DNA from: Pseudogymnoascus verrucosus
Lineage: Eukaryota
Reading direction: 5' to 3' (one strand)
NCBI GenBank assembly: GCA_001662655.1
Contig: KV460236.1
DNA length: 57,901 nt
Within the stretch, counting starts at the first letter, position 1. Every line of letters starts with the position of its first letter. A program made the position numbers and the translations under genes. The notes beneath the pieces are model-generated. The model worked only from the letters and a program-made list of their open reading frames with translations. It ran no database searches and had not been told where the DNA came from. Below are positions 41,786 through 57,890 of the stretch, one piece after another.

Positions 41786-42091
41786 GGGACGTGTGTCATA
41801 TTGCGCATATCTACCTGGCATGAATACGGCTACATACAGCTTTGAGAGCTGGTGGTCTGTTCTGTGGAGGGGAAATGGAAGGAGGGTGTTCCCGTTTTTA
41901 GAATAAAGCAGGATCTAGATTTAAATGGCTAGAGAGAGGATACTATATTACAAGAGGAGGGGATTAAGGCTTGATATAGAACATAATGAAGTACCGAATG
42001 AAATGAAGTCCAACCAATAATCCCGAATAGCAAAAAAAAAGAAAATAACAAAAAAAACATATTCTGAACCATGAGCTCAGAGAAGAATAAA

Positions 42092-42173
42092 CTCTCTGAC
42101 GGGGAGTCGAACCCCGGTCTCCCGCGCTTTGTCGAATGACAAGCGGAAATCATGACCGTTAGACCATCAAAGA
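42092..42173 (-). tRNA. tRNA-Asp(GTC) with 10-nt intron
   Basis: Reverse complement TCTTTGATGGTCTAACGGTCATGATTTCCGCTTGTCA[TTCGACAAAG]CGCGGGAGACCGGGGTTCGACTCCCCGTCAGAGAG. Acceptor stem TCTTTGA/TCAGAGA, A and B boxes, intron after position 37, and T-rich tracts downstream. Confidence 0.95.
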
Positions 42174-42512
42174 TTGTTGACCGAAAAGGCATAACGGGAA
42201 ACAAGTACCAGAGACGCTTTTCGTGAGTTTTTCAGGGGCTACTAGTTGATGCCTGGCTTCAGAGTCGGGTTTTGTCATTCTCCGATTGCTGAGCCTAGTT
42301 TCTCGCTAGCACAAAAGACTGTTTTTAGAATTATGCACAACACGGCTTCGATTTCTCGAACCTCGGCGAATTATGCCTTAAATCCGGGGCCATTTCAGGT
42401 CACAAGGGGGAGTCAGGTGACATGATTAATCAGCAACAGGTGAGCTTGGTTTTAAGTTCCTGAACATTCTAAATATATGTAGTATAGTAGTTAATTGCTC
42501 GAAAATCTTCCC

Positions 42513-45500
42513 TTAACTAGATGTCTTAGCAAATAAGAGCTTTGTAAGAATCTTCTCGCAGAAGGACGTTAAAGACGTAGCAGTCATAATGTCCAAAGTC
42601 GTTACAAGGCAGCCTAACTCCGTCCTCACCCAGTTACGGATCTCGACGGCAGCTAAGGAGTCTGTCCCGTAGACGCTGATCGGTCTCTCCGGATCCATTG
42701 GCTCCTCAAGCCGCAAAATACGCATAAAGCATCCGTTAATAACATCGATAACGGCTTTCAGTCTCGAGGCGGGATCTGCTGACTCAGTGCGCAGTAAAAG
42801 GAAGAGCGTTTGGATATCAGCGTTAGCATTCTCTCCGCTAGATTTCAGATCCTTAGACCCCTCGTTGTTACTGAAGAGAGGCGAGAAGCGCGCATCAGAC
42901 TTTAGGGCCGAGTCGTCAGGCTGCGGGAAGGTCAAGCCCGTTATCAATGGACTAAATGCCAGCTCGCTGGCAGAGCTGATATCGCTTGCCGCTGGAGAAA
43001 TCTTCTGTTGGAGCATCGCGAAGTAGAGGATCTTGCGCAGTTGACCTTCGTTGAGGCTACGGAACATTCCCTTTTCGGTCGAACTCTGAAGCTTGGCGCT
43101 CTCGGCGATCACACCGGAGTCTTCACTAATACCCAAGTCAATAGAGCACGCTGGCAATCCGCGGGCCCGGCGCCAGGCGGCGAAAGCGTCTAGGAAGACG
43201 TTTCCAGCAGCGTAGTTTGCTTGGGCAACGTGTCCGATGATACCGGAAAGAGACGAAAGCATCGTGAATGAATCGAGCTTCAGTTGGAGGGACTCGGAGG
43301 CATTGTGCAGGTTCCAAGTTCCACGGATCTTGCACTGCAAAGCTTCGTGATACTCGGTAAGTGTCATAGACTCAAAAGGACGATCCTATAGCACGTTGGT
43401 CAGCCGATGTGTGGTATGTAGGTAAGAAATGTCTTCTTAATGTGACTGGTATTGACTAAATCGGGCACTTGGACTTACCCGAAGAACCATGGCACCCTGG
43501 ATGATACCGACAATGGGAACGGTTGTTTGCTTCATGGCCTTAGTGACGGCGTTTGCATCTGTCACATCTGCTATCAGGAGATCGATATGACAGCCGAGCG
43601 CATTGATCTGTTTGATCGCATGTCTTGATTTCTCGTCCGCATAACCGCTCCGCGACATGACCGCGAGATGTTTTGCGCCTTGCTGAGCTAGATAGATCGC
43701 AAGACCTCCACAGAGACCGCGGAGACTGCTGACGATGAGATAGCAACCATTGGTGCTGAGGTTGAGACTCTTTGGCGCTCGTCGAATCTGTACATTGGCT
43801 TAAGTTAACAAACCTGTATTTAACACGATCTCGGGGAGGATTGTTTCTTGAGCAGAAAGGCTTACCGGAGCTTCTATCCCACTATCTTGTGTGAGCACAA
43901 CCTTTCCAATGTGGGTTCCTGGTCGTAGGAATTGGAATGCAGCGGGAATATCGGTCCACGCAAATTTATGGACTGGTGCGATAGGCTTGATGGAGCCTAC
44001 CTCAATGAGCTCAAACAGCTTCGACATCAACCTCGCCACGAGAGAATCGGCCGCCTTCTCAGGGGAGATATCGATGGCTCTGAAGGAGCTGTTGCGATCG
44101 AAAGGAGCCCATGGCAAGCTGTTCCGATCCAAAACGTCTCTTTTACCAAGCTCTACCATGATGCCTCCATCCGCGAGGACTCGGAACGACTCATCCAGCA
44201 CGTCTCCGGTCAAGGAGTTAAGAATGGCGTCCATCCCTCTGCCATTCGTAGCTGACAGGATCTGGTCGCCAAAATCGGTATTGCGCGAGTGGAAGATGCG
44301 ATCATCGGCCAGACCAAAGGCAGACTTAAGGAATTCCTTCTTTTCGGGCGTGCCAACAGTGGCATAAACTTCTGCGCCCACGGACTGCGCGATCTGGATG
44401 GCGGCAATACCTACGCCACCAGCGGCCGAGTGAATGAGGACGCTCTTGCCAATGGACAAGCTGGCATGGTCTAAGAGGGCGTGGATAGCAGTGATGTAGG
44501 CGGTCGGAATCGTCGCTGCCTCCTCAAAGGTCATATAATCGGGAATGCGGTGGAGACGACCAGGTCTGGTGTGAATGCGATTCGCAAAGCATCCTTTGTC
44601 AAAAACCACAACATGATCCCCAACCGAGAGTCCCGATACGCCCTGAGCCACTTTGGTGACTACACCGGCGGCTTCGTGGCCCAAGGCGTTTTCGTCCCCA
44701 GGAGCAGTGCCAACTGTGACATCGTTAGTGTTAATACACATCACTAATACAGTAGACCTGGAGATTCAAGTGTTGCTTACGAGTGACGACTACATCCTTA
44801 TAACTGATACCAGCCGCATGGATTTCAACCTCGACCATACCATCGGCCAAAGGAGACGGCTCCGCATTCACCTCACCAAAGTGCACGGAGTCGAGGTTGC
44901 CTAGTTTCTCGCAGCGCGCTTTGATCATGGTATCACTCTCGTGGAGATCCACGATGTCGGTCTTCCTGTCGCTGGGATGGGTGCTCTGACCGAATGTGAG
45001 ACCACTGTCTCTATAAACGCGGCTGACGTGGACGATACTTCCACGCTCCACAAAGTCGTAGTCAGTGCTTGCACGTGGATCAAACGTCTTTGCGGATGTC
45101 ATGTCCCATATCCGCCCAAGACAGGCCGAGATAGCATCGGTCATTGTACTGCCAGTGCTAGCTTCGACATCGAGCGTGAAAAACGGCACCTGTTCCTCGG
45201 CACGGATCGTAGCAAGGAATCCAACGGCGGCAGCTCGCGTGGGGTCTGTACTTCTGCTCGTTACCCAGAGCAGGGGGCGTTGCACTTTGGAAAGATGCTG
45301 AAGCAGCTCCCATTGCTTCGCATCGATGGTCTCCATGACAGAGGAGAAGAGCTCGTCCAGAACAATCACAATACTGGTGTTGGAGGTAATATCTTCCAGC
45401 GGGTTGGAAGAGTGCTCAAGGAGCCATTTCTGGGTCGCGAGACCGTCACACACCTTCGACACTTCCTCCGAGATGGAGTCTTGGGCAGCCGCGTTCAAAA

Positions 45501-48500
45501 TGCTGACCCGAGTCACGTTCCTTGGGGGAACCTCTGCGTCCCCGTTGATTGGCAAGGCGGTTTTCGTCAGCTTTTCTACACGGCAGATGCTGACGCCATT
45601 GCTTAGATGGATGGTCTTCCCAAGCGAGTCGATGTTGGCAAACCCGTTTGATACGATAAATCCTCGGTCACGGACAGTCAGAGCCAGACTCTGAAGGAAT
45701 CCATCCACCTCTACCATCTCGTCCTGTCCGGGGTTGATGATCACCAGATCAATACTGTCTTCTTTGGTAATCGTCATAGGCTTGGTGACATCCATGACCA
45801 GGTGGAATTGCGGGCTGATGGAACGCGAGTTGAATCTTTCCTGGGCCTGGATCAAGGTCTTGGGATCCCGAACGGCAAAGTTGTACTGCGAGCAGCCAGC
45901 TCGAACGGGATTGTCGGTCTTGTCCTTGCCTTGCTCCAACCAGAGATTCGAGCCATTTAGCAGACTCAAATTGACCTCCAAGACGCTCAGTTCCGGGTTC
46001 TTGTGCGCGATCAAATCGATGACCTGCTGCACTGTCTTGGATCCTAGCCATGTCGTGCTTAAAGTCGACTCGCCTTCCATAAGCATGTCAATGTCAGCGT
46101 TCCAGTTCACGTGCATGAACTGGTGAGGGATCTTCTCCGCGTCGCTCGTCTCCATCTCGGCCCATGCGAGGCCCTTCAGCTGGAACAACAATGAACCATC
46201 CTGAGGGTCGTGCAGATCGACGTTTGTGCTGTAGTTGCGCGCACTCTCAGCGTCTCCGGTGCCCAGGTAGTTTGCAGACGCATAGGCAACGCCTTCGGTT
46301 AGAACACTCGATTTGCGCGCACTTCCGGATTCAATGAGCACGCTGTCAATAGCCTTAGGCACGAGGGCTGGATCACCAGCCTGGGGCAGTTGGCCTTTCC
46401 AGAGAGAAGGTGTTGTAGCTTGAAAGCACCCATCTAACACAGCTGGATGAAGGGGGTACCAAGACTGACCCTCCGGCTGAGATGGAGGAGGCTCCAGGTT
46501 GACGGTTGATCGATTGTATCGCTGGCCCATTGTCGATTCAACCGATATATGTTTCTGAAAGGATGGTCCGAAATTATAGCCCATTTCTGCCATAGTCTTG
46601 TACCACAGCCGTGCGCTTGTGGCGAGCTCTAGTGGCTCGACTGATTTAAGAGTATCTTGGTAGTCGGTCTCCACGCAGACCATGCCGGTACTGTGGACGA
46701 TGTCTACATCAACTCCTTCTTGCTCCGAACACATCTGATACTCATACCACGATGCAGTTGAGCCTCCTCTAACTGGAGTTAGTGCCAAGGAGACTGTAGT
46801 CTCTCTCTCCTCAGTGAGGACTAGGGCGCGAAGGAACTTCACGTCACGAAGCCTGAAGCGGTAGCGTGCTGGAGCTATGTGCTTCCATTTAGTGACCATT
46901 GCCGTCTGATACATGGCTTCCACCGCCATGGCGAGATAAGCAGTAGCCTAAAAGGGTGCATAAAGTCAGCGAACAAGCAACTGATTGAGTATTGCCAGGA
47001 TAGACAGAGTTAAACGTACCGGAAACACGACATCAGTGCCCAATCTATGGTCTCTCAGCCACGGCAAGTACGCGAGCTTGATATTAGCTCTGAAGATAGG
47101 AGCATTCCATCCCACGGAGTTGACCTTGGAACCGATCAAGTCATGGTGGATGAATTTTTTGAACCGCCATTCCTTGCTCGCGCGAGTCTCATGCCAATAA
47201 CGTGTTGAATGATTCCAGACGTAATTCGGCATATCAACAATGACATTCGACGTCTGCGCGTTTACCCGATTGACCTTGGCTAGACTGACTTGTTGGTCGC
47301 CCGCTAGAAACAGTCGGGCTGCGGCATCGTACATAGGCATGGTCGAGTCATCGTTTCGCTTGAGAGCCGACGCATACTGGGCGTTCTTGCCCGTGGCTTT
47401 CTTGATTTGGGCGATCGGGCCCGCCAGTGCGTTGCTAGGACCCAGTTCAATGAGGAAATCGGCGTTACTCTGCTTGAGAAGCTCTGCCGTGGCAGTCGCA
47501 AATCGCACGGGCGAAACCATGTTCTGCTTCCAATATGCGGCATCGAGAGCCGTGTTTGGATCGACTACCGCGCTTGTCACCGAGCTAAACATGGCAACGG
47601 CCTTGCTCGTCTTAGGTCGATGCGTAGGCGACTTCTGGAACAGACCGTCTTCGTGCAGCATAGCCTCATATACCTCACCAATCTCTGCCATGTAGCTGGA
47701 ATGGTATGCAAGATCTACAAGGAGTAGCCGCGCGAAATGACCGTCAGCCTGGATCCGGTCACGCAGCTCCTCGAGCTCCGACACAAGTCCGGACAGAGTC
47801 AAACTATTAGGGCTGTTGTAGCAGGCCACTTGAATCTTGTTTTCCTTCTGCTCGAGCAGATATGCCGCAAGCGTGGCTTCGTCAATGCCAGCAGCAAGCA
47901 TGCCCACGGGATCACTGGATTCTATTTTCTTGGACGATTGACCGCGGTAGTAGGCGACCTTGATGGCATCGGAGGAGCTCAAGAGGTTGGCAGCGTAGGC
48001 CGCCGCGATTTCTCCGGACGAATGGCCGACGACGGCCTCGGGAGAGATTCCCCATTCTTCCAGAACTCGGAGGAGGGCAATCTGCAAAGCCGTGACCAAA
48101 GGCTGGGAGAACTCAGGCAGCCGCAACGCCTCAACACTCCGTGTGGCCGTCAACTCCTCCAAGAGCGACCACTTCGGTGGACTTGGCAAGCTCTGAAGAA
48201 CGCTGTCGAGGTACTCAACTGTGCTCTTGGCTAACGGGAAATCCCTGATCAAATTGGCACCCATTGTTGGCCACTGGGCACCTTGACCGGTGAAGACAAA
48301 GGCAACGCGAGGTACTGTCGACATCCGTTTGCCGCGGATCAAGGTGTCCTGGTTGATGAACTGCGGAGTGGAACGGGTGATAGCCACCGCGCCCTGATAA
48401 TGTCTGCTTCGCCGCTCAGAGAGGGTGTAAGCCAAGTCACCGAGCTCAAGTGAAACCAAAGGATTCTGCAGGTGTGAGTTGAATTTCTTAATGTATGTGT

Positions 48501-50178
48501 CCAGCGAGGATTGATCGTTGGCCGAAAAGAATAGCAATGTTGGAGCGGCTTGTGTTTTATTGTCCTGCTCCTCGCCAAAGTCGTCGTCATCATCATCATC
48601 GAAGAAATCGGTTGACACCTGCTTGTACGAGGAGACGTGCCGGGATAACTCTTGAGCATCATTCTCAACCACGGCATGAGCGTTGGCACCTGGTCTGTCA
48701 GCGGTATACCACTATTTCAGGAGCATAATACATACCTCCATACCCGAAAGAGTTTACGCCTGCTCGTCGAATGTTGTCTGCATCTACCTTTGGCCAGGGC
48801 ATCGACATTCGGCTGGCCTTTAGACGCAGGCTTTTCCAGTCAATGTTCGGGTTTGGGTTGAAGAATGTCGGGGTCCCCGGAATGACGCCCTTTTCCACCG
48901 CCATGGTGGCTTTCAGGAGACCCGAAAGCCCTGCTGATGGTTCGGAATGGCCAATATTACTTTTAATCGACCCAATGATAAGCTCTTGGTTATCTTCACG
49001 TCCCTTGCTGAAAACAGATGCTGCGCCCTTGGCCTCGATCGGGTCGCCCGCGAGAGTGCCTGTGCCATGAGCTTCAAGGAACCGCGTCTTTGAGAAATCT
49101 TCCTCCTTGATGTTTGCATTCTTTAGGGCCTGTCTTGTAACAGCAGCCTGTGCCTCTGAGCTGGGATTCGCAATACCGTTGGTTCGTCCCGATGCATTCA
49201 CTGCTGTGCCGCGGATGATTGCTCGAATCGGGTCCCCGTTTCGCACCGCATCGTCTAGTCTCTTCAAGAAAAAACAATTCACTCCTTCTGCTTTGACATA
49301 GCCATCTGCTGATGCGTCGAAACTTTTCGATAGTCCTGAGCCAGACTGTGTCACATGCATCATGCCAATCTCCTCATTGTGCTCTGGGCTGAGCCACAAG
49401 TTGGCTGATCCAACTAACACTGCATCCGCCTGGAAGGTGTCAAGATAGCGACATCCTACGTCTAATGACACAAGTCCCGCTGAGCACGCTGTGTCCACGG
49501 TCATGCTTGGGCCATGTATGTTGAGAAAGTGACTGATACGATTGCTGAGAAGAGCGGGAGCCAGCCCGATCATAACCGATTCGGCTCTATTCTCTGGATC
49601 TCGGTGCTGAATGGCACCATAATCTTGGGAGAAAACCTTAGCAAACATGGCTTTTGAACAAAAATGCTGTCCATACCTATAAAATTGGTTCCAACAATCA
49701 CACCTGTGTTAGTGCCACTGAGAGTCTCCATAGGTATACCACTATTTTCGAGGCACTCATATGCCACCTCGAGCATCTGCCGTTGCTGTGGGTCCATAGC
49801 AATGCACTCTGTACGACTGATGTTGAAGAACTGGCCGTCAAACAAAGCCGGATCCACGTCTTCCATGAACATGCCACCAGGTGACTTCATGGTCCTAGGG
49901 CGTTGGGGATTCTCCTTGTCATAGTGACCAGCCAAGGAAAACCTTGAAGATGGTGGTTCATTCTTAGCCACCCCCCCTCGCTCAAGCAATTCCCATAAGG
50001 CAGTTGGCGAGTTACTGTGACCTGGAAGACGGCATCCCATTCCAACAATCGCAATGGGCACCTGTGTCCTGTGACCCAGCCCTGATATTACCTCATCGTC
50101 GCTGGAGCATCTCTCGCTGTTGCCCGAAGTAGCAACATTATCGAAACTTTCTGAGGAAAGGCTAGATGAAAATGTCAT
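42513..50178 (-). CDS. Highly reducing iterative type I polyketide synthase KS-AT-DH-(pseudo-MT)-ER-KR-ACP, ~2400 aa, 7 exons
   Basis: [101 protein letters not shown]. Six GT-AG introns splice in frame. Confidence 0.95.
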
Positions 50179-50414
50179 TGTGCCGTGTAGTGTACAAGTC
50201 GTTCGGATGAGAGATTGGTCTGACTTCAGAACGTGAGGAGACAGGTGAAAGAGAACTATTCTTTTATCACTTCTCGAGTAGACGTTTATTTCTCAGTGAG
50301 GAATACCAGTCCCATACACTCACTCACATGTTACTACCATAATGGTGGGGCCATATGCTTATCTGTTCCCCTGTAAGCTATATCTTTTCATTTGCACCCG
50401 GATCACGATGGTGG

Positions 50415-50436
50415 CTTACATGCATGTGCATGTAAG
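50415..50436. promoter_or_regulatory. Perfect inverted repeat CTTACATGCA-TG-TGCATGTAAG in the PKS/hydrolase divergent promoter; candidate TF site
   Basis: 10-bp perfect arms with a 2-bp spacer. The same half-site recurs at 52155-52181 and 56163-56170. Confidence 0.5.
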
Positions 50437-50642
50437 TAGACTTGGCAATGGCAAGAAATGATAATGCTTACAACCTCAACTCACCCGTAGTAGCAATCCA
50501 TAATTTGTGTCACCATTCGACGCCGTTCTGTTGCCAACTCGAGGCCTCCTTTGTTCTTTTAGTTCAGCTACATCTGTGCTCCCCGTATTCGAAGTGCAGT
50601 ACATTTGTCGATATCTCGCATACACCGACTAATCTCATCACA

Positions 50643-51578
50643 ATGGATTCCATTCGCAAAGAAGATGTTGAATTTAAAACGCTGGACGGGCTCACGCTTC
50701 GTGGCTGGCTCTTTGCAGGTCCTCCAAACGGACCCGCCATTATAATGACCCCAGGATTCAATCTCACCAAGGACATGATCATTTTCGAAGCTGGTCAATA
50801 TCTGAATGCAGCTGGTTTTACTGTCTTGGGCTATGATCCAAGGTGTATTGGAATGAGCGACGGCAAACCGCGCAATGACACTCAGCCTATGAAGAATGTG
50901 GAAGACTATCATGATGCCCTCACTTACCTCAAGGTGCACAGGCGAGACTTGGTTGATCCTAACAGAATCGCATTCTGGGGTTACTCGTTTAGTGGTGCTA
51001 TTGCTTTATGTGCAGCCGCCCTCGACAAACGGGCCAAAGCCGTCATAGCCTGTGCGGCTACCACCACCTGGGAATTCACGAAGTGGAAACAGGTTCTAAG
51101 CAAGGCGATGAAAGATCGGGAGTCGCAATTAGCTGGAAACGAGGGCATGTACTTACCACTGCTCACCGAGACTGGTGAACAACCTGCTGGCTTGGGCACC
51201 GGCTACCAGAAGGAGGATGTCCTGGGTATCATCAAGCGTCACGCCTCCATCGAACCAAGCTTCATACCTCGAACTACACTGCAGACCTACTATAACATTG
51301 CCGCGTTTCGTCCTATGGCGCTCATGTGTTTCGTGGATCCTACTCCAGCTTTACTCATGACGGGCGAGAACGATGAAATATCGCCACCAGAGATGCAAAG
51401 GAAGCTGATCTATGATGCGATCACAGGACCAAAAGAGTTTGTGACAATAAAGAACAGGGCACATATGGATATCCTGACTGGTGACGGATCTTTGGAGGTT
51501 TTTGAGAAGCAGGCGGACTTTCTAAATCGTATGATGCCAGCTCAAAAGGGTACCAATGGCATTCACAAAATCAGATGA
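50643..51578 (+). CDS. Alpha/beta-hydrolase of the polyketide thiohydrolase/transferase family (Bref-TH/DcsB/Fma-AT type)
   Basis: DVEFKTLDGLTLRGWLF, IMTPGFN, YDPRCIGMSDGKPRND, nucleophile elbow WGYSFSG, Asp (GENDEIS) and His (RAHMD). Intronless and head-to-head with the PKS. Confidence 0.88.
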   Translation: MDSIRKEDVEFKTLDGLTLRGWLFAGPPNGPAIIMTPGFNLTKDMIIFEAGQYLNAAGFTVLGYDPRCIGMSDGKPRNDTQPMKNVEDYHDALTYLKVHRRDLVDPNRIAFWGYSFSGAIALCAAALDKRAKAVIACAATTTWEFTKWKQVLSKAMKDRESQLAGNEGMYLPLLTETGEQPAGLGTGYQKEDVLGIIKRHASIEPSFIPRTTLQTYYNIAAFRPMALMCFVDPTPALLMTGENDEISPPEMQRKLIYDAITGPKEFVTIKNRAHMDILTGDGSLEVFEKQADFLNRMMPAQKGTNGIHKIR

Positions 51579-52340
51579 GTGACGAATGGTCCGTTGGTTT
51601 TGTCTCTTTCTCTGTTTATAGACGAGATAATATAGAACTTGACGGAAGCTGGATATTTTGAATCAAGTCTCTTGCGGATCTACCATATCTATGAAGATGT
51701 GATCAGAAGCTCTTGTGCAGATCTTCTTGTGCAGAACCCCTGGTGCAAAAACGTCATTGCCATCTTGTCACTCGAGCCCATGGTCTACTGTACAAGAAAC
51801 CGCATTCTACCAATTGACATTGGATACATGGTCTCACCATCTACGGCTGGCTCCCAAAAAGCTACTGCTTGCTTCGCCATAAAGGCGGCTAACAAACGAA
51901 GAGTATTTGTAAACTAACGTACCTCAGAATTGCTCTGCTTCAGATACTTGCTGAATGTCGTCACCCAGGAGTTTCAGGACAATTTCAATGCCAACGCCTG
52001 ACGTGCCCCGTCGCACCCAGTGTCCAGCTTTGAGTGGTCGTAATCACAAAGACGAAGATAGCTTTGTAAAGATTTCACATGGAATCACGGGACAGGCATT
52101 TTGCGTCGGGTTGAATCAATACTAGTTTGGGTACGTGAGTTAGCAGGACATTATCTTACGTGCGCCATATATGCATGTAAGAAACTTCCAAATCTGCAAA
52201 TCAGATACACGAGAGCTTAGCGCCGATCTCTCACCGATACAGATCTGGGTGGATCGTATGTACCATAGGGGCTATCAGATAGAGCACATGCGAGCTTACC
52301 GACGATCTCCCGCGTATAGAGTCTAGTGGATCCTATGCGC

Positions 52341-52455
52341 TAAGGGTGGGAGATAGTCCGTATCCGTGCGGATTGTATGTGCTACGGGGTGGGTTAGGGA
52401 GTGGAAGATAGTCCGTGGATTGCCTGCGTGTCTTAAGGGTGGGAGATAGTCCGTA
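52341..52455 (+). repeat. Direct repeats TAAGGGTGGGAGATAGTCCGTA (52341-52362, 52434-52455) with a degenerate middle copy (~52395-52416)
   Basis: Two identical 22-mers flanking TAGGGAGTGGAAGATAGTCCGT. Confidence 0.8.
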
Positions 52456-52848
52456 CTTTGATTATAAACACACTGTAGTTTGTAATAACGTTGTAATAAC
52501 GGGTGTGGCGTGGCATTTTCATCCTTGTGATAAACGTGCACACATATCCATGCATATTACAGTACCGACCACCTTTCGTAAACTTGCTCATACCTGTTGT
52601 GAAACTGGAAGCCAAGGTTAGACTTAAATCTAACTATAACCTTGTTTTAGTCAACGTGTTCTTCAACTGGTCGTCTAATACGTCAATCAGAGATAGCAGG
52701 TATCAGCCTATAAAGATAATCTCAGCCATAAATTCAAGCTTTTCAGTTATATAAGCCCGGCAGTTAAAAACGTATTTCACATGCGGGTGGGCTGCACAGG
52801 CGGGTAAGTGGGATATGATAGTGGTACAGCACAATTCTTATTATTCAG

Positions 52849-53955
52849 CTAACCCCCTGTTATCCTTGGCTCCAACGCGTCCAACAATATTTCCACAATC
52901 TCCTCATGTCCCTGCTTTACTGCAAAGTGCAGGGCATCCAACCCATGTTTATCTACAGCCTTGGGATCAGCTCCGTGCTTCATGAGAGTTTCTACCATCT
53001 CTTCATCGCCAGACTGCACGGCGACATGGAGGGCTGTGCGGCCATCGCTGTCCTGCTCGTTGATGGTAGACACCCCGCGGCGGAGTAACAGACGGATCAT
53101 GGACTTTTTCCGGGTGCGGATTGCCACGTGCAGGAGTGGGATCCTCGTTGGGGAGGTTTGGTACGAGATGTCTGAAGGCTGTGTTGCGAATAATTGTCCC
53201 ATGCTGCTCGTGCGGCTGATGGATGAGCTGCCACCTGGAGAATAGGAGTTGGCGGGAGAGGGGTAGGGTGGGGAGAGAGATGCCGAAGAAGGCGTGTTTA
53301 CAGCCGGAGGAGTTGCTGCCCCACTTGGAAGTAACCGCCGCTGATACATAGCCAAGGCGCCGTCGTTCGATTCCGCCCAAAAAGCCACTGGCTGCGGGCA
53401 GTAACGTTGGTGAGACTCGGCGTCCGTTAAATCTGAATCGAAGAGTCCCTCAAACGTGATATCTAGATATGAAGGGTTTGGTATTATATTGTTCTCCAGC
53501 ATTGCGTCAAATGTATATGGTACCTGAGGCGACGAGGTTCCGGAAGAGGCGGAAGGCGTACGCCACTGAAATGAGGCGTCATCCAAGCTCCACAACGAAG
53601 ATGCCAGACCCTCACAGTTCGGGAGGAGTTCGGATTCTTGCTGATAGTACAGGTCCTCGCCGTGCGCAGTATCCACAGTATCCACAGCTTCCATAGCATC
53701 CACAGCGCCCGCAGCATCGAGATCGTTGGAAGTAGCGGCGTCGGGTTGGTCTGCGCTTGTAGTAGCATTGGTTTTCTGCCGCTCTACCATGAAATGTCAG
53801 ATACTCGTCCATTGACCAATGTTCACGGGCCGAGGGCCAGGGGGGGCTTCACCTCTATATCTTCGCTGTGCGGCACGGTTTTGCAGTCTTCTCTGGGCAG
53901 ACACTGTACGTTTTTGTTCGACGCCAAAAATGCTGTTATGTTCTACACCCGACAT
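52849..53955 (-). CDS. bANK transcription factor (bZIP-type basic region + C-terminal ankyrin repeats; ToxE-like architecture); exons 53955-53853 and 53783-52849
   Basis: Exon 1 MSGVEHNSIFGVEQKRTVSAQRRLQNRAAQRRYR splices (GTGAAG..CTGAC..TAG) in frame to ERQK. No leucine zipper follows. C-terminal ankyrins PLLHVAI, GRTALHVAV and GLDALHFAV. Confidence 0.85.
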
Positions 53956-54254
53956 TTTGTTTTTCTACCAATTCTACTACTCTATCTCCCTCTTATTAAC
54001 ATAATTTGGAGTGGGCTGACGCATAAACGTTAGAGTCTTTGTAAGCGATGTTGCCATCAAGATATAGCCAAAGAGTGTTGCGGACCTTCTCCTTTTAGAT
54101 GCTCGAATAAGCTTGCGCTATAAGCTTGCACTAGGGACTCAGCAGGGGGGTGCTATTGTATTCTTATATCCCGTAGAGGAAGCATTTATCTACCGTACAG
54201 TAAAACATAACATTGCCACGGTAGGATAACTGTCCGAGACAGTCCATCAGCTTA

Positions 54255-55828
54255 CTATTGAAGCTTGAAGTACCCCTTCCATAGATGTGATAGCTTGGCC
54301 TGTGGATCGTATTTCCGCGCGATACTCACTAGTCTCGCGTAGTTCTCCTTTCCATAACCCTTTTGTACCTCCTGTTTGATATCCGCATAGTTCATATACA
54401 CAAATGGCGTGTGTACCTTGTACTCAATGGCCTTTGCTTCGATATCGGCAATCAATTTACGCGTGGCGCTGTACGCAAGCTCATCATTCTTTGCCTCTGT
54501 CCAGGACGTTGGGAAGGAGATCATTATCAAGGCTCCGTTTGAAGGCTTTAGACCCATTGCGTTCCCGCCATTCTTTTGCATTGCCTCGATAAGGTTCACG
54601 GGAATGGGCTGGAAAAGTGCAGTTAGAGAGATGTCGTCTCCCCCCTCATTCTGAAGCAAGGCAACATTGTGACTTTCGAAGAGAGACATGATCTCGGTAA
54701 TGAATTTTCCTGGGAAGGAAGCAGAAACGACGACATTGCCCCACGTCCACCGGCGGCCGTATGGCGTCGCGATGCTTGTGATGAAATTCGAGACCGTGCC
54801 TGTGATGGTTGAGTTGGCAGTTGCTGAGGGTACCTTTTGGAATGGCTCGAAGACTGCGGGTATACTCCCTGGAGATGAAGGTACCGTAGCATGCACAAGG
54901 CCTACATCAGCCGAGTATCCGCCGGTAGAGGAGTGGTAGTTGATGCCAACAAAGCCAGTTGCGCCTTTGTCCGAGGGCATCCCGTGAATTGTAAGGTTCT
55001 GGAAGTGGGAGATGACTGTCGCGTTTGAGCTGCCCGGAAAGCTGAGGCCATTTTCCCAGACTTCTCCTTGGTCGAAAATGACAAGGTCGAAACGAGTCAC
55101 GATGCCAAAGTTAGAACCACCCCCACCCCGCAAGGCCCAGTACAGGTCCTTGTTCTCAGTTGGAGTTGCATTGACAATCCGGCCAGAGGCGAGCACGACT
55201 TCGTACCGACGTACGTTGTCGCAAGCCCATCCGTACATTCCTGAAAAAAACGAGATGCCGCCACCGAGGGTCAGCCCGCTTACTCCAACGTTCATGTCGC
55301 GCCCTCCCACAACACCAAGGCCCATGGGATCGAGAATTTCGGTAACATTGATCCAGCGGTTGCCTGGACCGACGGATACCGACCGTCGATCAGAGGAAAC
55401 CTTGATATCGTTGAGATGCACCAGATCAATCGTCACGCCGTTTTCAATGCTGGAACCACCGGAGAAAGGCATATGGCCGCCTCCTTTCACTGTAAATGGC
55501 CAATCTCCTTCTGTCAAGACTCTGAGAATGGTCGAAACCTCTTTGGTGCTCTTGGGGGCCACAAAACATCGTGGCTGAGTCTCGAGCTGTTGTAGAGACC
55601 AGTAATCCGCTGATTGAAGGTAAGATGTGGTGTTCGGGTAGGCAACATCTCCTGCCAAGGCAGCCGCTAGAGCTCTACACTGAAATACACATTATTAACA
55701 CGAATCTATGGGGGAGTTGAGTGGCATACAGCATCGTCTCGTGCATGCAGAGGATTCTTAGCGGCAAGTGTTATCCCACTAACACTGCACAACAGTGCAA
55801 TCCCAAGAGTTCCGAAGATCACAACCAT
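54255..55828 (-). CDS. Secreted FAD-linked oxidoreductase (berberine-bridge-enzyme/VAO-like; 2 exons)
   Basis: Signal peptide MVVIFGTLGIALLCSVSG, VKGGGH (covalent-flavin His), GVSGLTLGGG, ALRGGGGSNFGIVT and BBE-type YMNYA..YGKENYARL..KYDP. Confidence 0.92.
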
Positions 55829-56721
55829 GTTGGCCGGGCGTGTTGAGTGATATTATGGCTGTATGCTGTCTATCTGTGAGAAGGAAGCTGTTCATATGAG
55901 GCAGCAGATACATTTCTTGTCTAGACAGTCTGGTTTTATATATATCCCGCAATGTTCGACGCCGCTTATGCATAGTCATCTTCCCCTGGTATGAAAAAAA
56001 GTCACCTTGACCATCTAGAACTGTGCTTCTTGGGCACTCCAAAGTTTCTTTGCTTGCCGCAAAGTGGCGCCCATGCCTGCTTATGGAGACCCCTGCCCGA
56101 AGGAAGGCAGTGGGGACGAAAATAGGCATGCGAAATTTAGCTGACCTCGTTCCGTCGTTTAGGCACGTAATCTTTCAGCCCCCCGGGATTTCCCCACCTT
56201 TCTTGTTTTGTATATCCTACCTGTTCCTGACGGCCAGCAACGCAGTAATCTAATATGGACCCCATTTCAAGCGTTGTGTGAGTATACTATAGTCGAGAAG
56301 TGGATTCGTGCAGAACCACACGGCAAACACATGGCTTAGTCCCATTCCACAACTCTCACCGCCACACCCGCACGATGCAGGCAATTTTGCAATTTCGACT
56401 CTCTACGAGCCATTTATAGAGCAGCCGTCCAGAAAAAATATACTAGTTATCACATATGCTCGACCGAAGTATCGTGAAAAATTGTTGGACGGAAGAAAGC
56501 CTCACACGCGAAAGTAGAGCTTGGAAAATGACCTAATTTTGAGAATGAATACGGGGTCGTGTTCACCACAAGAAGAATTTGGATATGAAATACGAAGATG
56601 GCAAGGCACACATATCAAAAATCACTATGAGCGGGCACTCCGTGCGAAAAACAATGGTAAGAGTCGCAAAGCAAGATTGTATTCTTCTGTTTACGCTGAC
56701 CGTAGACCATATCGCCAGTTT

Positions 56722-57675
56722 TTACCAAGGGATCTCTTCACGCGTGTCAACATCGATGAACTTCCCTGAAAGAGTCTCCCGTGTTGCCGAGCTAATGAGA
56801 TCAATGATATTCTTGGCACTCTCCTCGCCCTTGGTGACGGGCAGGTCGATGCCAGCACCAGTGGCTGCCGCGATTCCCATGTCTGTCAAGACGAATCTGT
56901 GCGGTGAACAATAAATGTCAGCGCTGTTCTTTAATCCCCGACACAATTTTCCCCCTTTTCTGGAACGACTTACCCCGGATGAATAGCAAAAGCGGTAAGA
57001 GACGCGTTCGAAACATGGAGAGTCCTGCAAACAGTGTTAGTCGCAGCCTATTGACGGACTATTATTGGTTGAGCCTACTGTGAAAACCAGTTGAGAGAGG
57101 CTTTTGACATGCAATAAGCAGCCGCGTACGAGTACCAAGGCAGTGGAGCGGCGGTGGAACCGCCACGGCTCGAGACTGTAACCCACTTCGGGGCGCTTGA
57201 CTTTGTGAGCAGCTTGTTCACTGCCTGGAATAGCACAACGCTGGACAAGACGTTGATGTTGAAACTATCAACGAAGGCCTTGGGATCAGCGGTTTCTAGG
57301 GGACCGGCGCCAATGGAGACACCAGAGTTGGCGATGACGATATCGATATGATCGACTCCGGCAACCTCAATGCTCTCGACGGCGCTCTTCGGATCCGTAA
57401 GGCTCGTGTTTTCGATACCGACAAGGAGGATACGTGAGCCGCTTCCTGCGGGCAAACTCTTGAGTTCCTCCGCCTGCGGAGCCTTGGGATCACGAACAGT
57501 CCCAATGACAATGTGATCCGGCTGCAAGAGATAGGCAGCTGCTAGAGACTTTCCGATGCCTACCATTCAACGATGTCAGGATGGTGAGAATGGCGGAAAA
57601 GGGATCATTCCCGAAAATGATGTGGGACATACCTCTGCCGGCGCCGGTGATGAGAACGACAGTTTGAGGAGCCAT
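56722..57675 (-). CDS. Short-chain dehydrogenase/ketoreductase, Nor-1-like (4 exons)
   Basis: VLITGAGRG|IGKSL (TGxxxGxG), IANSG, VSSRGGS, catalytic YCMSK, IHPG|FVLTDMG and C-terminal GKFIDVDTREEIPW. Confidence 0.9.
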
Positions 57676-57813: not shown

Positions 57814-57890
57814 GCAAGTTTGATTTCAAATCGAACCCTCCTCGAACCCCTCCTTGGTCAAGGAGGGGTTCGATTTGAAATCAAACTTGC
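57814..57890. repeat. Inverted repeat/hairpin with internal partial duplication, followed by poly-T at window end
   Basis: GCAAGTTTGATTTCAAATCGAACCC...GGGTTCGATTTGAAATCAAACTTGC outer arms, plus inner CGAACCCCTCCTTG-GT-CAAGGAGGGGTTCG. Confidence 0.85.

Follow-up and report, generated by a model that had tools for sequence, protein, structure and literature searches.

The HEx PKS1 cluster of Coniothyrium sporulosum (the same fungus as Paraphaeosphaeria sporulosa) comprises a polyketide synthase (PKS), a hydrolase, a P450, and a flavin-dependent enzyme, as well as a short-chain reductase (SDR), and yeast expressing it produced a macrosphelide-like macrotriolide in which two triketides are combined with one diketide, together with linear oligoesters (Harvey et al. 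2018, PMC5895447). According to that study, which mined GenBank as of July 2015, the clusters for macrosphelides were still to be worked out in 2018 (PMC5895447), and the antiSMASH tables of genome papers use "HEx-pks1 polyketide" to name a reference cluster (PMC11766614, PMC12488377); a further match to the label, PMC12422055, concerned HEx-pks15 and was discarded as irrelevant. A26771B offers a precedent for redox tailoring, with a highly reducing PKS (HR-PKS), a thioesterase acting in trans, a P450, a secreted flavin oxidase, and a cytosolic SDR working on a gamma-keto-enoate (PMC9854587, PMC9134587, PMC12710036, PMC11375781). Here, we analyzed a stretch of 57,901 nucleotides from Pseudogymnoascus verrucosus (GenBank assembly GCA_001662655.1, contig KV460236.1), hereafter the window, which ends within a cluster containing an HR-PKS. 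The six genes of this cluster, the last of them on a second contig, very probably form a macrosphelide (16-membered macrotriolide) cluster orthologous to HEx PKS1 of P. sporulosa, most likely another copy of a pathway already described and not new chemistry.

Macrosphelide compounds are catalogued in PMC10671944. Macrosphelide A is the main antifungal substance of P. minitans (PMC7200069), and VKM F-4518 and VKM F-4519, two Pseudogymnoascus strains, are reported as producers of macrosphelides A and B, which are 16-membered trilactones (PMC12917493, citing Antipova 2023; PMC13427916). The PKS of the window shares a global identity of 99.8% with that of VKM F-4518 and 99.4% with that of VKM F-4519, followed by Lachnellula (91%), P. 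sporulosa OAG05545.1 (85.4%), P. minitans (84.7%), and Paraphoma (81.8%), with values of ≤76% beyond. The hydrolase is 99.0% identical to the F-4518/F-4519 protein and 90.0% to P. sporulosa OAG05544.1, and the oxidase is 75.3% identical to OAG05541.1; over the cluster proteins, the F-4518/F-4519 orthologs range from 97.9 to 99.8%. These orthologs have consecutive accessions in F-4518 (V500_01683/01682/01681) and F-4519 (V501_03180/03181/03182), are KAF9733995/996/999 in P. minitans, and in P. sporulosa (OAG05545/44/41) fall within the consecutive block OAG05541-45, with PKS and hydrolase adjacent, as here. Orthologs of the PKS, hydrolase, and oxidase were therefore present in all three sequenced producers named in the literature seen (P. 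minitans, VKM F-4518, and VKM F-4519). The 90% identity cluster of the hydrolase has 29 members, and the 15 listed include Pseudogymnoascus strains, P. minitans, P. sporulosa, Lachnellula occidentalis, and Paraphoma; the same organisms, with neighboring accessions, came out on top when the oxidase or a PKS exon served as the query. In the PKS tree these relatives formed one clade (10 of the 32 rows, SH-like support of 100), recovered in a smaller tree with 6 of 11 rows and support of 100/100. A metagenome scan confirmed four loci among 162 pattern matches.

Since the species, gene count, and gene types match, the P. sporulosa block OAG05541-45 would be HEx PKS1 itself. All five HEx PKS1 enzyme types are present in our cluster, counting the P450 on contig C29. 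The original prediction, made from the window alone, had called the cluster uncharacterized and named near-identity to a characterized one as what would overturn this; with an orthologous block whose species and gene types agree with those of HEx PKS1, at the identities given above, this is largely what was found. The arrangements differ, however. After joining contigs C31 and C29, the order here is PKS, hydrolase, bANK regulator, oxidase, SDR, and P450, with the regulator, oxidase, and SDR all on the minus strand beyond the hydrolase, whereas in P. sporulosa it is apparently PKS, hydrolase, two genes, and oxidase, with no internal room for a regulator. In the counterpart locus L005, the two slots after the hydrolase hold a P450 and then an SDR. 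No gene-level study (knock-out or enzyme) of macrosphelides or macrotriolides beyond HEx was found in the literature searched, which did not cover most subscription journals; supplements outside it may already make the link.

The five genes first predicted in the window are real, with all frames open after splicing, but the list was incomplete. A P450 is required by the macrosphelide hypothesis, and it was found across the contig gap, the end of the window being the end of contig C31. When the assembly was searched with the P450 of L005, an 86% match appeared at the very start of C29, the remaining 33 matches being far weaker (next best, 27 to 51%). The break coincides with a hairpin (Table 1) of which no second copy was found elsewhere in the assembly. 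Contigs assembled from runs X2 (possibly from the source itself) and X3 (from another study) continue past position 57890 into C29 sequence, and those of X2, X3, and X8 reach 2.4 kb further, sufficient to contain the P450 gene. C31 and C29 can thus be joined at the hairpin, and the P450 is the sixth gene of the cluster.

The spliced PKS has no internal stop and is letter for letter the same as the independently annotated protein P0411. Its catalytic residues are in place (KS C214/H353/H393; AT S687 and YHS; DH H1011/D1192; ACP S2371), and the enoyl reductase (ER) is intact, with a conservation of 85.1% compared to 85.0% for AT and 82.6% for DH. As predicted, the enzyme lacks a methyltransferase: Pfam gave no match to such a family in the PKS, which retains a degenerate stretch (LEVNL) that we take to replace the glycine-rich S-adenosylmethionine motif of active methyltransferases. 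From the domains seen here and the 2+1 composition of the HEx PKS1 product, the PKS would make two short unmethylated units, 3-hydroxybutyryl (diketide, C4) and 5-hydroxyhex-2-enoyl (triketide, C6). As a separate observation, 12 of the 14 PKSs compared have SSLRGLC in place of a glycine-rich motif in the nucleotide-binding loop of the KR (window 43677-43700); the Apiospora sequence at this position is GGLRGIC, and one of the 14 rows could not be matched to the pattern.

The hydrolase gene starts 464 bp from the PKS start on the opposite strand, in agreement with the head-to-head pair about 460 bp apart that had been described. Its predicted Ser-Asp-His triad also holds, with S115, D244, and H274 invariant in all 16 aligned relatives. 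Among solved structures, it is nearest to DcsB and GrgF: the best PDB matches were GrgF (6LZH, E 1.1e-60) and DcsB (7D78), both with E values of about 1e-60, and Foldseek gave identities of 37% and about 35%, respectively. GrgF, the best match by sequence, has a cysteine nucleophile (GLCFGG), whereas the corresponding residue of our hydrolase is Ser115. GrgF reportedly joins two different chains from one PKS, forming a C-C bond. DcsB (7D78/7D79) and Bref-TH share with our protein the fold, the serine nucleophile elbow, the triad, and a methyltransferase-less partner PKS (PMC9055631) but release or cyclize a single chain, while the hydrolase here, about 35% identical, would join three. We infer that it is the chain-joining and cyclizing enzyme: it would take the units off the ACP, esterify them head to tail, and close the trimer (6+6+4 = 16 ring atoms), after which hydroxylation by the P450 at the enoate gamma carbons would yield macrosphelide A.

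The original prediction had an unmethylated reduced polyketide, plausibly a medium or large lactone. A lactone is still the expected product, but one that is probably assembled from three short chains and not from a single medium or long one. An uncharacterized single-chain lactone of the decarestrictine or A26771B kind would fit with DcsB being among the nearest solved structures, and with a gene set that equals that of A26771B minus the acyltransferase. Still, the hydrolase shares only 35% identity with DcsB but 90% with its P. sporulosa counterpart, and the P. sporulosa cluster, whose gene set is the same, yielded a triolide along with oligoesters, which makes a single-chain product very unlikely. 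Downstream of the hydrolase, window 51600-52270 and positions 2316-2900 of L005 share three blocks of 68 to 71% DNA identity with stops in the frames, which may be conserved noncoding DNA or a decayed gene.

In the macrosphelide interpretation, the oxidase and the SDR would act after the ring is complete. Macrosphelide A is a diol and macrosphelide B a ketone, and the pair probably interconverts such alcohol and ketone forms, by analogy with A26771B. We slightly favor a cycle, modeled on BerkD and BerkC, in which the oxidase would act outside the cell, converting a gamma alcohol to the ketone of macrosphelide B, and the SDR would run the reaction backward on the inside; the ketone/alcohol switch initially suggested is plausible. 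From its hydrophobic N terminus (crude hydropathy) and six sequons, the oxidase is probably secreted. The A26771B/berkeleylactone system (BerkA-F) has counterparts here of its HR-PKS, thioesterase, P450, flavin oxidase, and SDR, although A26771B is a single-chain macrolide and none of the six genes corresponds to the acyltransferase BerkF. A further difference lies in the flavin attachment. The oxidase here carries His102 for FAD attachment, but the position of the Cys in bicovalent relatives is occupied by Asp161, so that the bicovalent His and Cys pair is absent; BeklD, 96% identical to BerkD, is bicovalent. Because of this Asp161, any role shared by the two oxidases would be convergent, and they are probably analogous, not orthologous. 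Several NCBI models (795 to 845 amino acids) fuse the oxidase to the regulator; with a stop codon at 54255 and a gap of 299 bp to the regulator start, this is probably an annotation artifact here. An additional oxidase copy (P0145), 81% identical and clustering with the Lachnellula ortholog, is present in one Pseudogymnoascus strain and possibly comes from a second or relict cluster.

Four of the 24 listed sequencing runs were examined, three of which behaved as DNA and one as RNA. In the RNA run, 5 of 30 bins had cover, corresponding to the SDR and two short pieces of the oxidase, and the lack of cover on the PKS, hydrolase, and regulator is no evidence. The RNA contig X16 was spliced across all three predicted SDR introns. 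This sparse cover and the repeats on both sides of the cluster could be expected from a recently acquired, largely silent island without a product in this fungus. However, the reading frames of all six genes are intact, the spliced SDR transcript comes from a near-identical organism, and near-identical strains are the reported producers, leaving a silent island barely credible.

The regulator gave Pfam ankyrin matches (Ank_2, E 4.9e-32), with three C-terminal repeats counted by eye. A basic region at about residues 20 to 38, also seen by eye, had no Pfam match, and with one leucine in the 40 residues following it there are no heptad leucines and hence no leucine zipper. The protein is 98% identical to the corresponding part of the F-4518/F-4519 models, and the ESM Atlas returned generic ankyrin clusters only. 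ToxE, Aps2, and Apf2 have the same architecture, an N-terminal basic region without a zipper and C-terminal ankyrin repeats (four in ToxE and Apf2, against the three seen here; PMC4109984), but belong to nonribosomal peptide synthetase clusters for cyclic tetrapeptides, whereas our regulator sits in a PKS cluster. Nor is its presence special to this gene combination, as had been supposed: the distant cluster L007 (9956-19285), with a PKS 57% identical, has the same six-gene order including a bANK gene, although its oxidase is Cys-bearing and of another subfamily (only 32% alike across a 180-residue stretch). Between hydrolase and oxidase, the blocks of five accessions in Paraphaeosphaeria, Lachnellula, and Paraphoma leave no place for a regulator.

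The Tox-box and the Api-box were absent from the four cluster promoters. The divergent PKS/hydrolase promoter contains a 22-bp palindrome made of two CTTACATGC half-sites, the only copy of this pattern in the assembly, and the half-sites recur in the same promoter of loci L005, L006, and L008. The 9-mer CTTACATGC has four copies in the 17.6-kb cluster versus none in 60.2 kb of flank; in the window, three were observed against 0.39 expected, and 2 of 100 shuffles reached three, an enrichment inflated by the motif having been picked after it was seen. L005 has CTTACATGC at three matching places, and none was found in L007. The bANK protein might turn the genes on, perhaps via these sites, a proposal to which we would give a little less than an even chance. 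The link is kept hypothetical because the scanned promoters of the oxidase and of the regulator itself have no CTTACATGC site and because the recovered stretch of L005 has no regulator despite its sites.

Several points weigh against the macrosphelide assignment. The ER here is intact and 85% conserved, although enoyl reduction is not required for macrosphelides A and B. The OAG accessions, which presumably are later than the July 2015 cut-off of HEx, are hard to square with that date. As described above, the promoters of the oxidase and the regulator lack CTTACATGC. Of the five accessions in the block OAG05541-45, those examined were OAG05541, OAG05544, and OAG05545, and the report of production by F-4518 and F-4519 is second-hand, via citing papers. 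The HEx main text gives no gene accessions by which the block could be identified; HEx compound 9 is called "closely resembling" macrosphelides, not identical to them, and a second cluster, PKS2, was taken from the same species (PMC5895447). These enzymes and their oligomerizing logic might thus lead to another product, such as a macrodiolide or, with the ER in use, a triolide that contains saturated units, while macrosphelides would come from another cluster. The intact, conserved ER would suit this, as would the PKS identity of 85% to P. sporulosa, not near 100%. So would the hydrolase lid: in the predicted structure (mean confidence score [pLDDT] of 65.8), residues 142-231 fall below 50, and ring-size control is unreadable from the model. 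On the other hand, the PKS is 99.4 to 99.8% identical to those of two reported producers, producers from two fungal classes share one PKS clade, and there is no second close thiohydrolase copy in the assembly, where four of five thiohydrolase-like matches are partial and 27 to 35% identical. We consider another product unlikely.

How the cluster came to be in both classes is a further matter. The Leotiomycete PKSs (Pseudogymnoascus and Lachnellula) group with those of Paraphaeosphaeria and Paraphoma, excluding Pseudopithomyces, a member of the family to which Paraphaeosphaeria belongs. The approximately unbiased (AU) test, run on 11 of the 32 rows and with a group named after the first tree had been seen, rejected the four Pleosporales PKSs as a clade (p 1.75e-90). 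This hints that the cluster may have moved between fungal classes; hidden paralogy may be the explanation instead. A comprehensive reading would have the PKS and the 311-amino-acid serine hydrolase as a programmed hetero-trimerizing machine (two triketides and one diketide, ordered, in an asymmetric ring), with a convergent A26771B-type switch of a monocovalent oxidase and an SDR acting on macrosphelides A and B, a bANK protein on a new CTTACATGC box, and horizontal transfer between Pleosporales and Leotiomycetes. All of this holding together is doubtful, and no published tests of the hetero-trimerization, a second redox switch, the CTTACATGC box, or the transfer were found in the literature searched.

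As the chemistry class and the gene set are already known, the assignment is useful rather than surprising to a specialist. It names the probable macrosphelide genes of fungi that make these compounds in nature, among them P. minitans, which is used commercially for biocontrol. It also opens two questions to direct testing: by what means a thioesterase acting in trans sets the number and order of unlike chains, and how general the alcohol/ketone cycle of self-protection is. A 2022 review among the A26771B papers cited above states that further examples were lacking.

Table 1. Positions of the cluster genes and associated elements (window coordinates unless C29 is given)
Feature	Position	Strand	Remarks
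Highly reducing iterative PKS, 2418 aa	42513..50178	-	KS-AT-DH-(dead CMeT)-ER-KR-ACP; Pfam and spliced model
PKS exons (7)	50178-49677, 49623-48736, 48689-47020, 46947-44781, 44713-43866, 43787-43479, 43385-42513	-	
22-bp palindrome, two CTTACATGC half-sites	50415..50436		PKS/hydrolase divergent promoter; candidate regulator box
Alpha/beta thiohydrolase, intronless, 311 aa	50643..51578	+	Triad Ser115-Asp244-His274
Third CTTACATGC site	52173..52181	-	Weakly conserved noncoding block 3' of hydrolase; same place in L005
bANK-type regulator, 345 aa	52849..53955	-	Exons 53955-53853, 53783-52849; intron is a model
FAD oxidase, FAD_binding_4 + BBE, 507 aa	54255..55828	-	Pfam
Short-chain reductase (SDR), 249 aa, 4 exons	56722..57675	-	TGxxxGIG and YxxxK motifs
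Hairpin, 25-bp perfect arms	57814..57890		SDR/P450 promoter; assembly break; last 17 bases overlap first 17 of C29
Fourth CTTACATGC site	C29:164-172		SDR/P450 side, contig C29
P450, 527 aa, one intron	C29:647-2279	+	Heme cysteine present; divergent from SDR; across assembly break
Intron-containing tRNA gene	42092..42173	-	Rfam RF00005, 44 bits; anticodon GTC (Asp) by eye; left cluster border, within multicopy DNA

With dispersed repeats on either side, the cluster resembles an island amid housekeeping genes. The repeat at 42040-42430 had 13 matches across the assembly and that at C29:2660-3060 had 23, and housekeeping genes (Pfam) lie to the left of the tRNA gene and repeats. ARAGORN called the tRNA at 42092-42173 as Phe when introns were allowed, and found no tRNA at the left border without them; Rfam confirms a tRNA, with an anticodon that by eye is that of Asp. 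Inspection by eye also showed a short direct repeat, about 20 bases long and in three imperfect copies, in the interval between hydrolase and regulator (window 52343-52456). Past the P450, C29 encodes a copper amine oxidase, an amino acid permease, and an ABC transporter, which lie beyond the repeats and were not counted as cluster genes. At about 9 to 10.5 kb on C29 (L014:8990-9998, L015:2-526), a gene with an HxxxD-like motif but no Pfam match is followed by an ABC transporter, 7 to 16 kb past the P450 and probably unrelated to the cluster.

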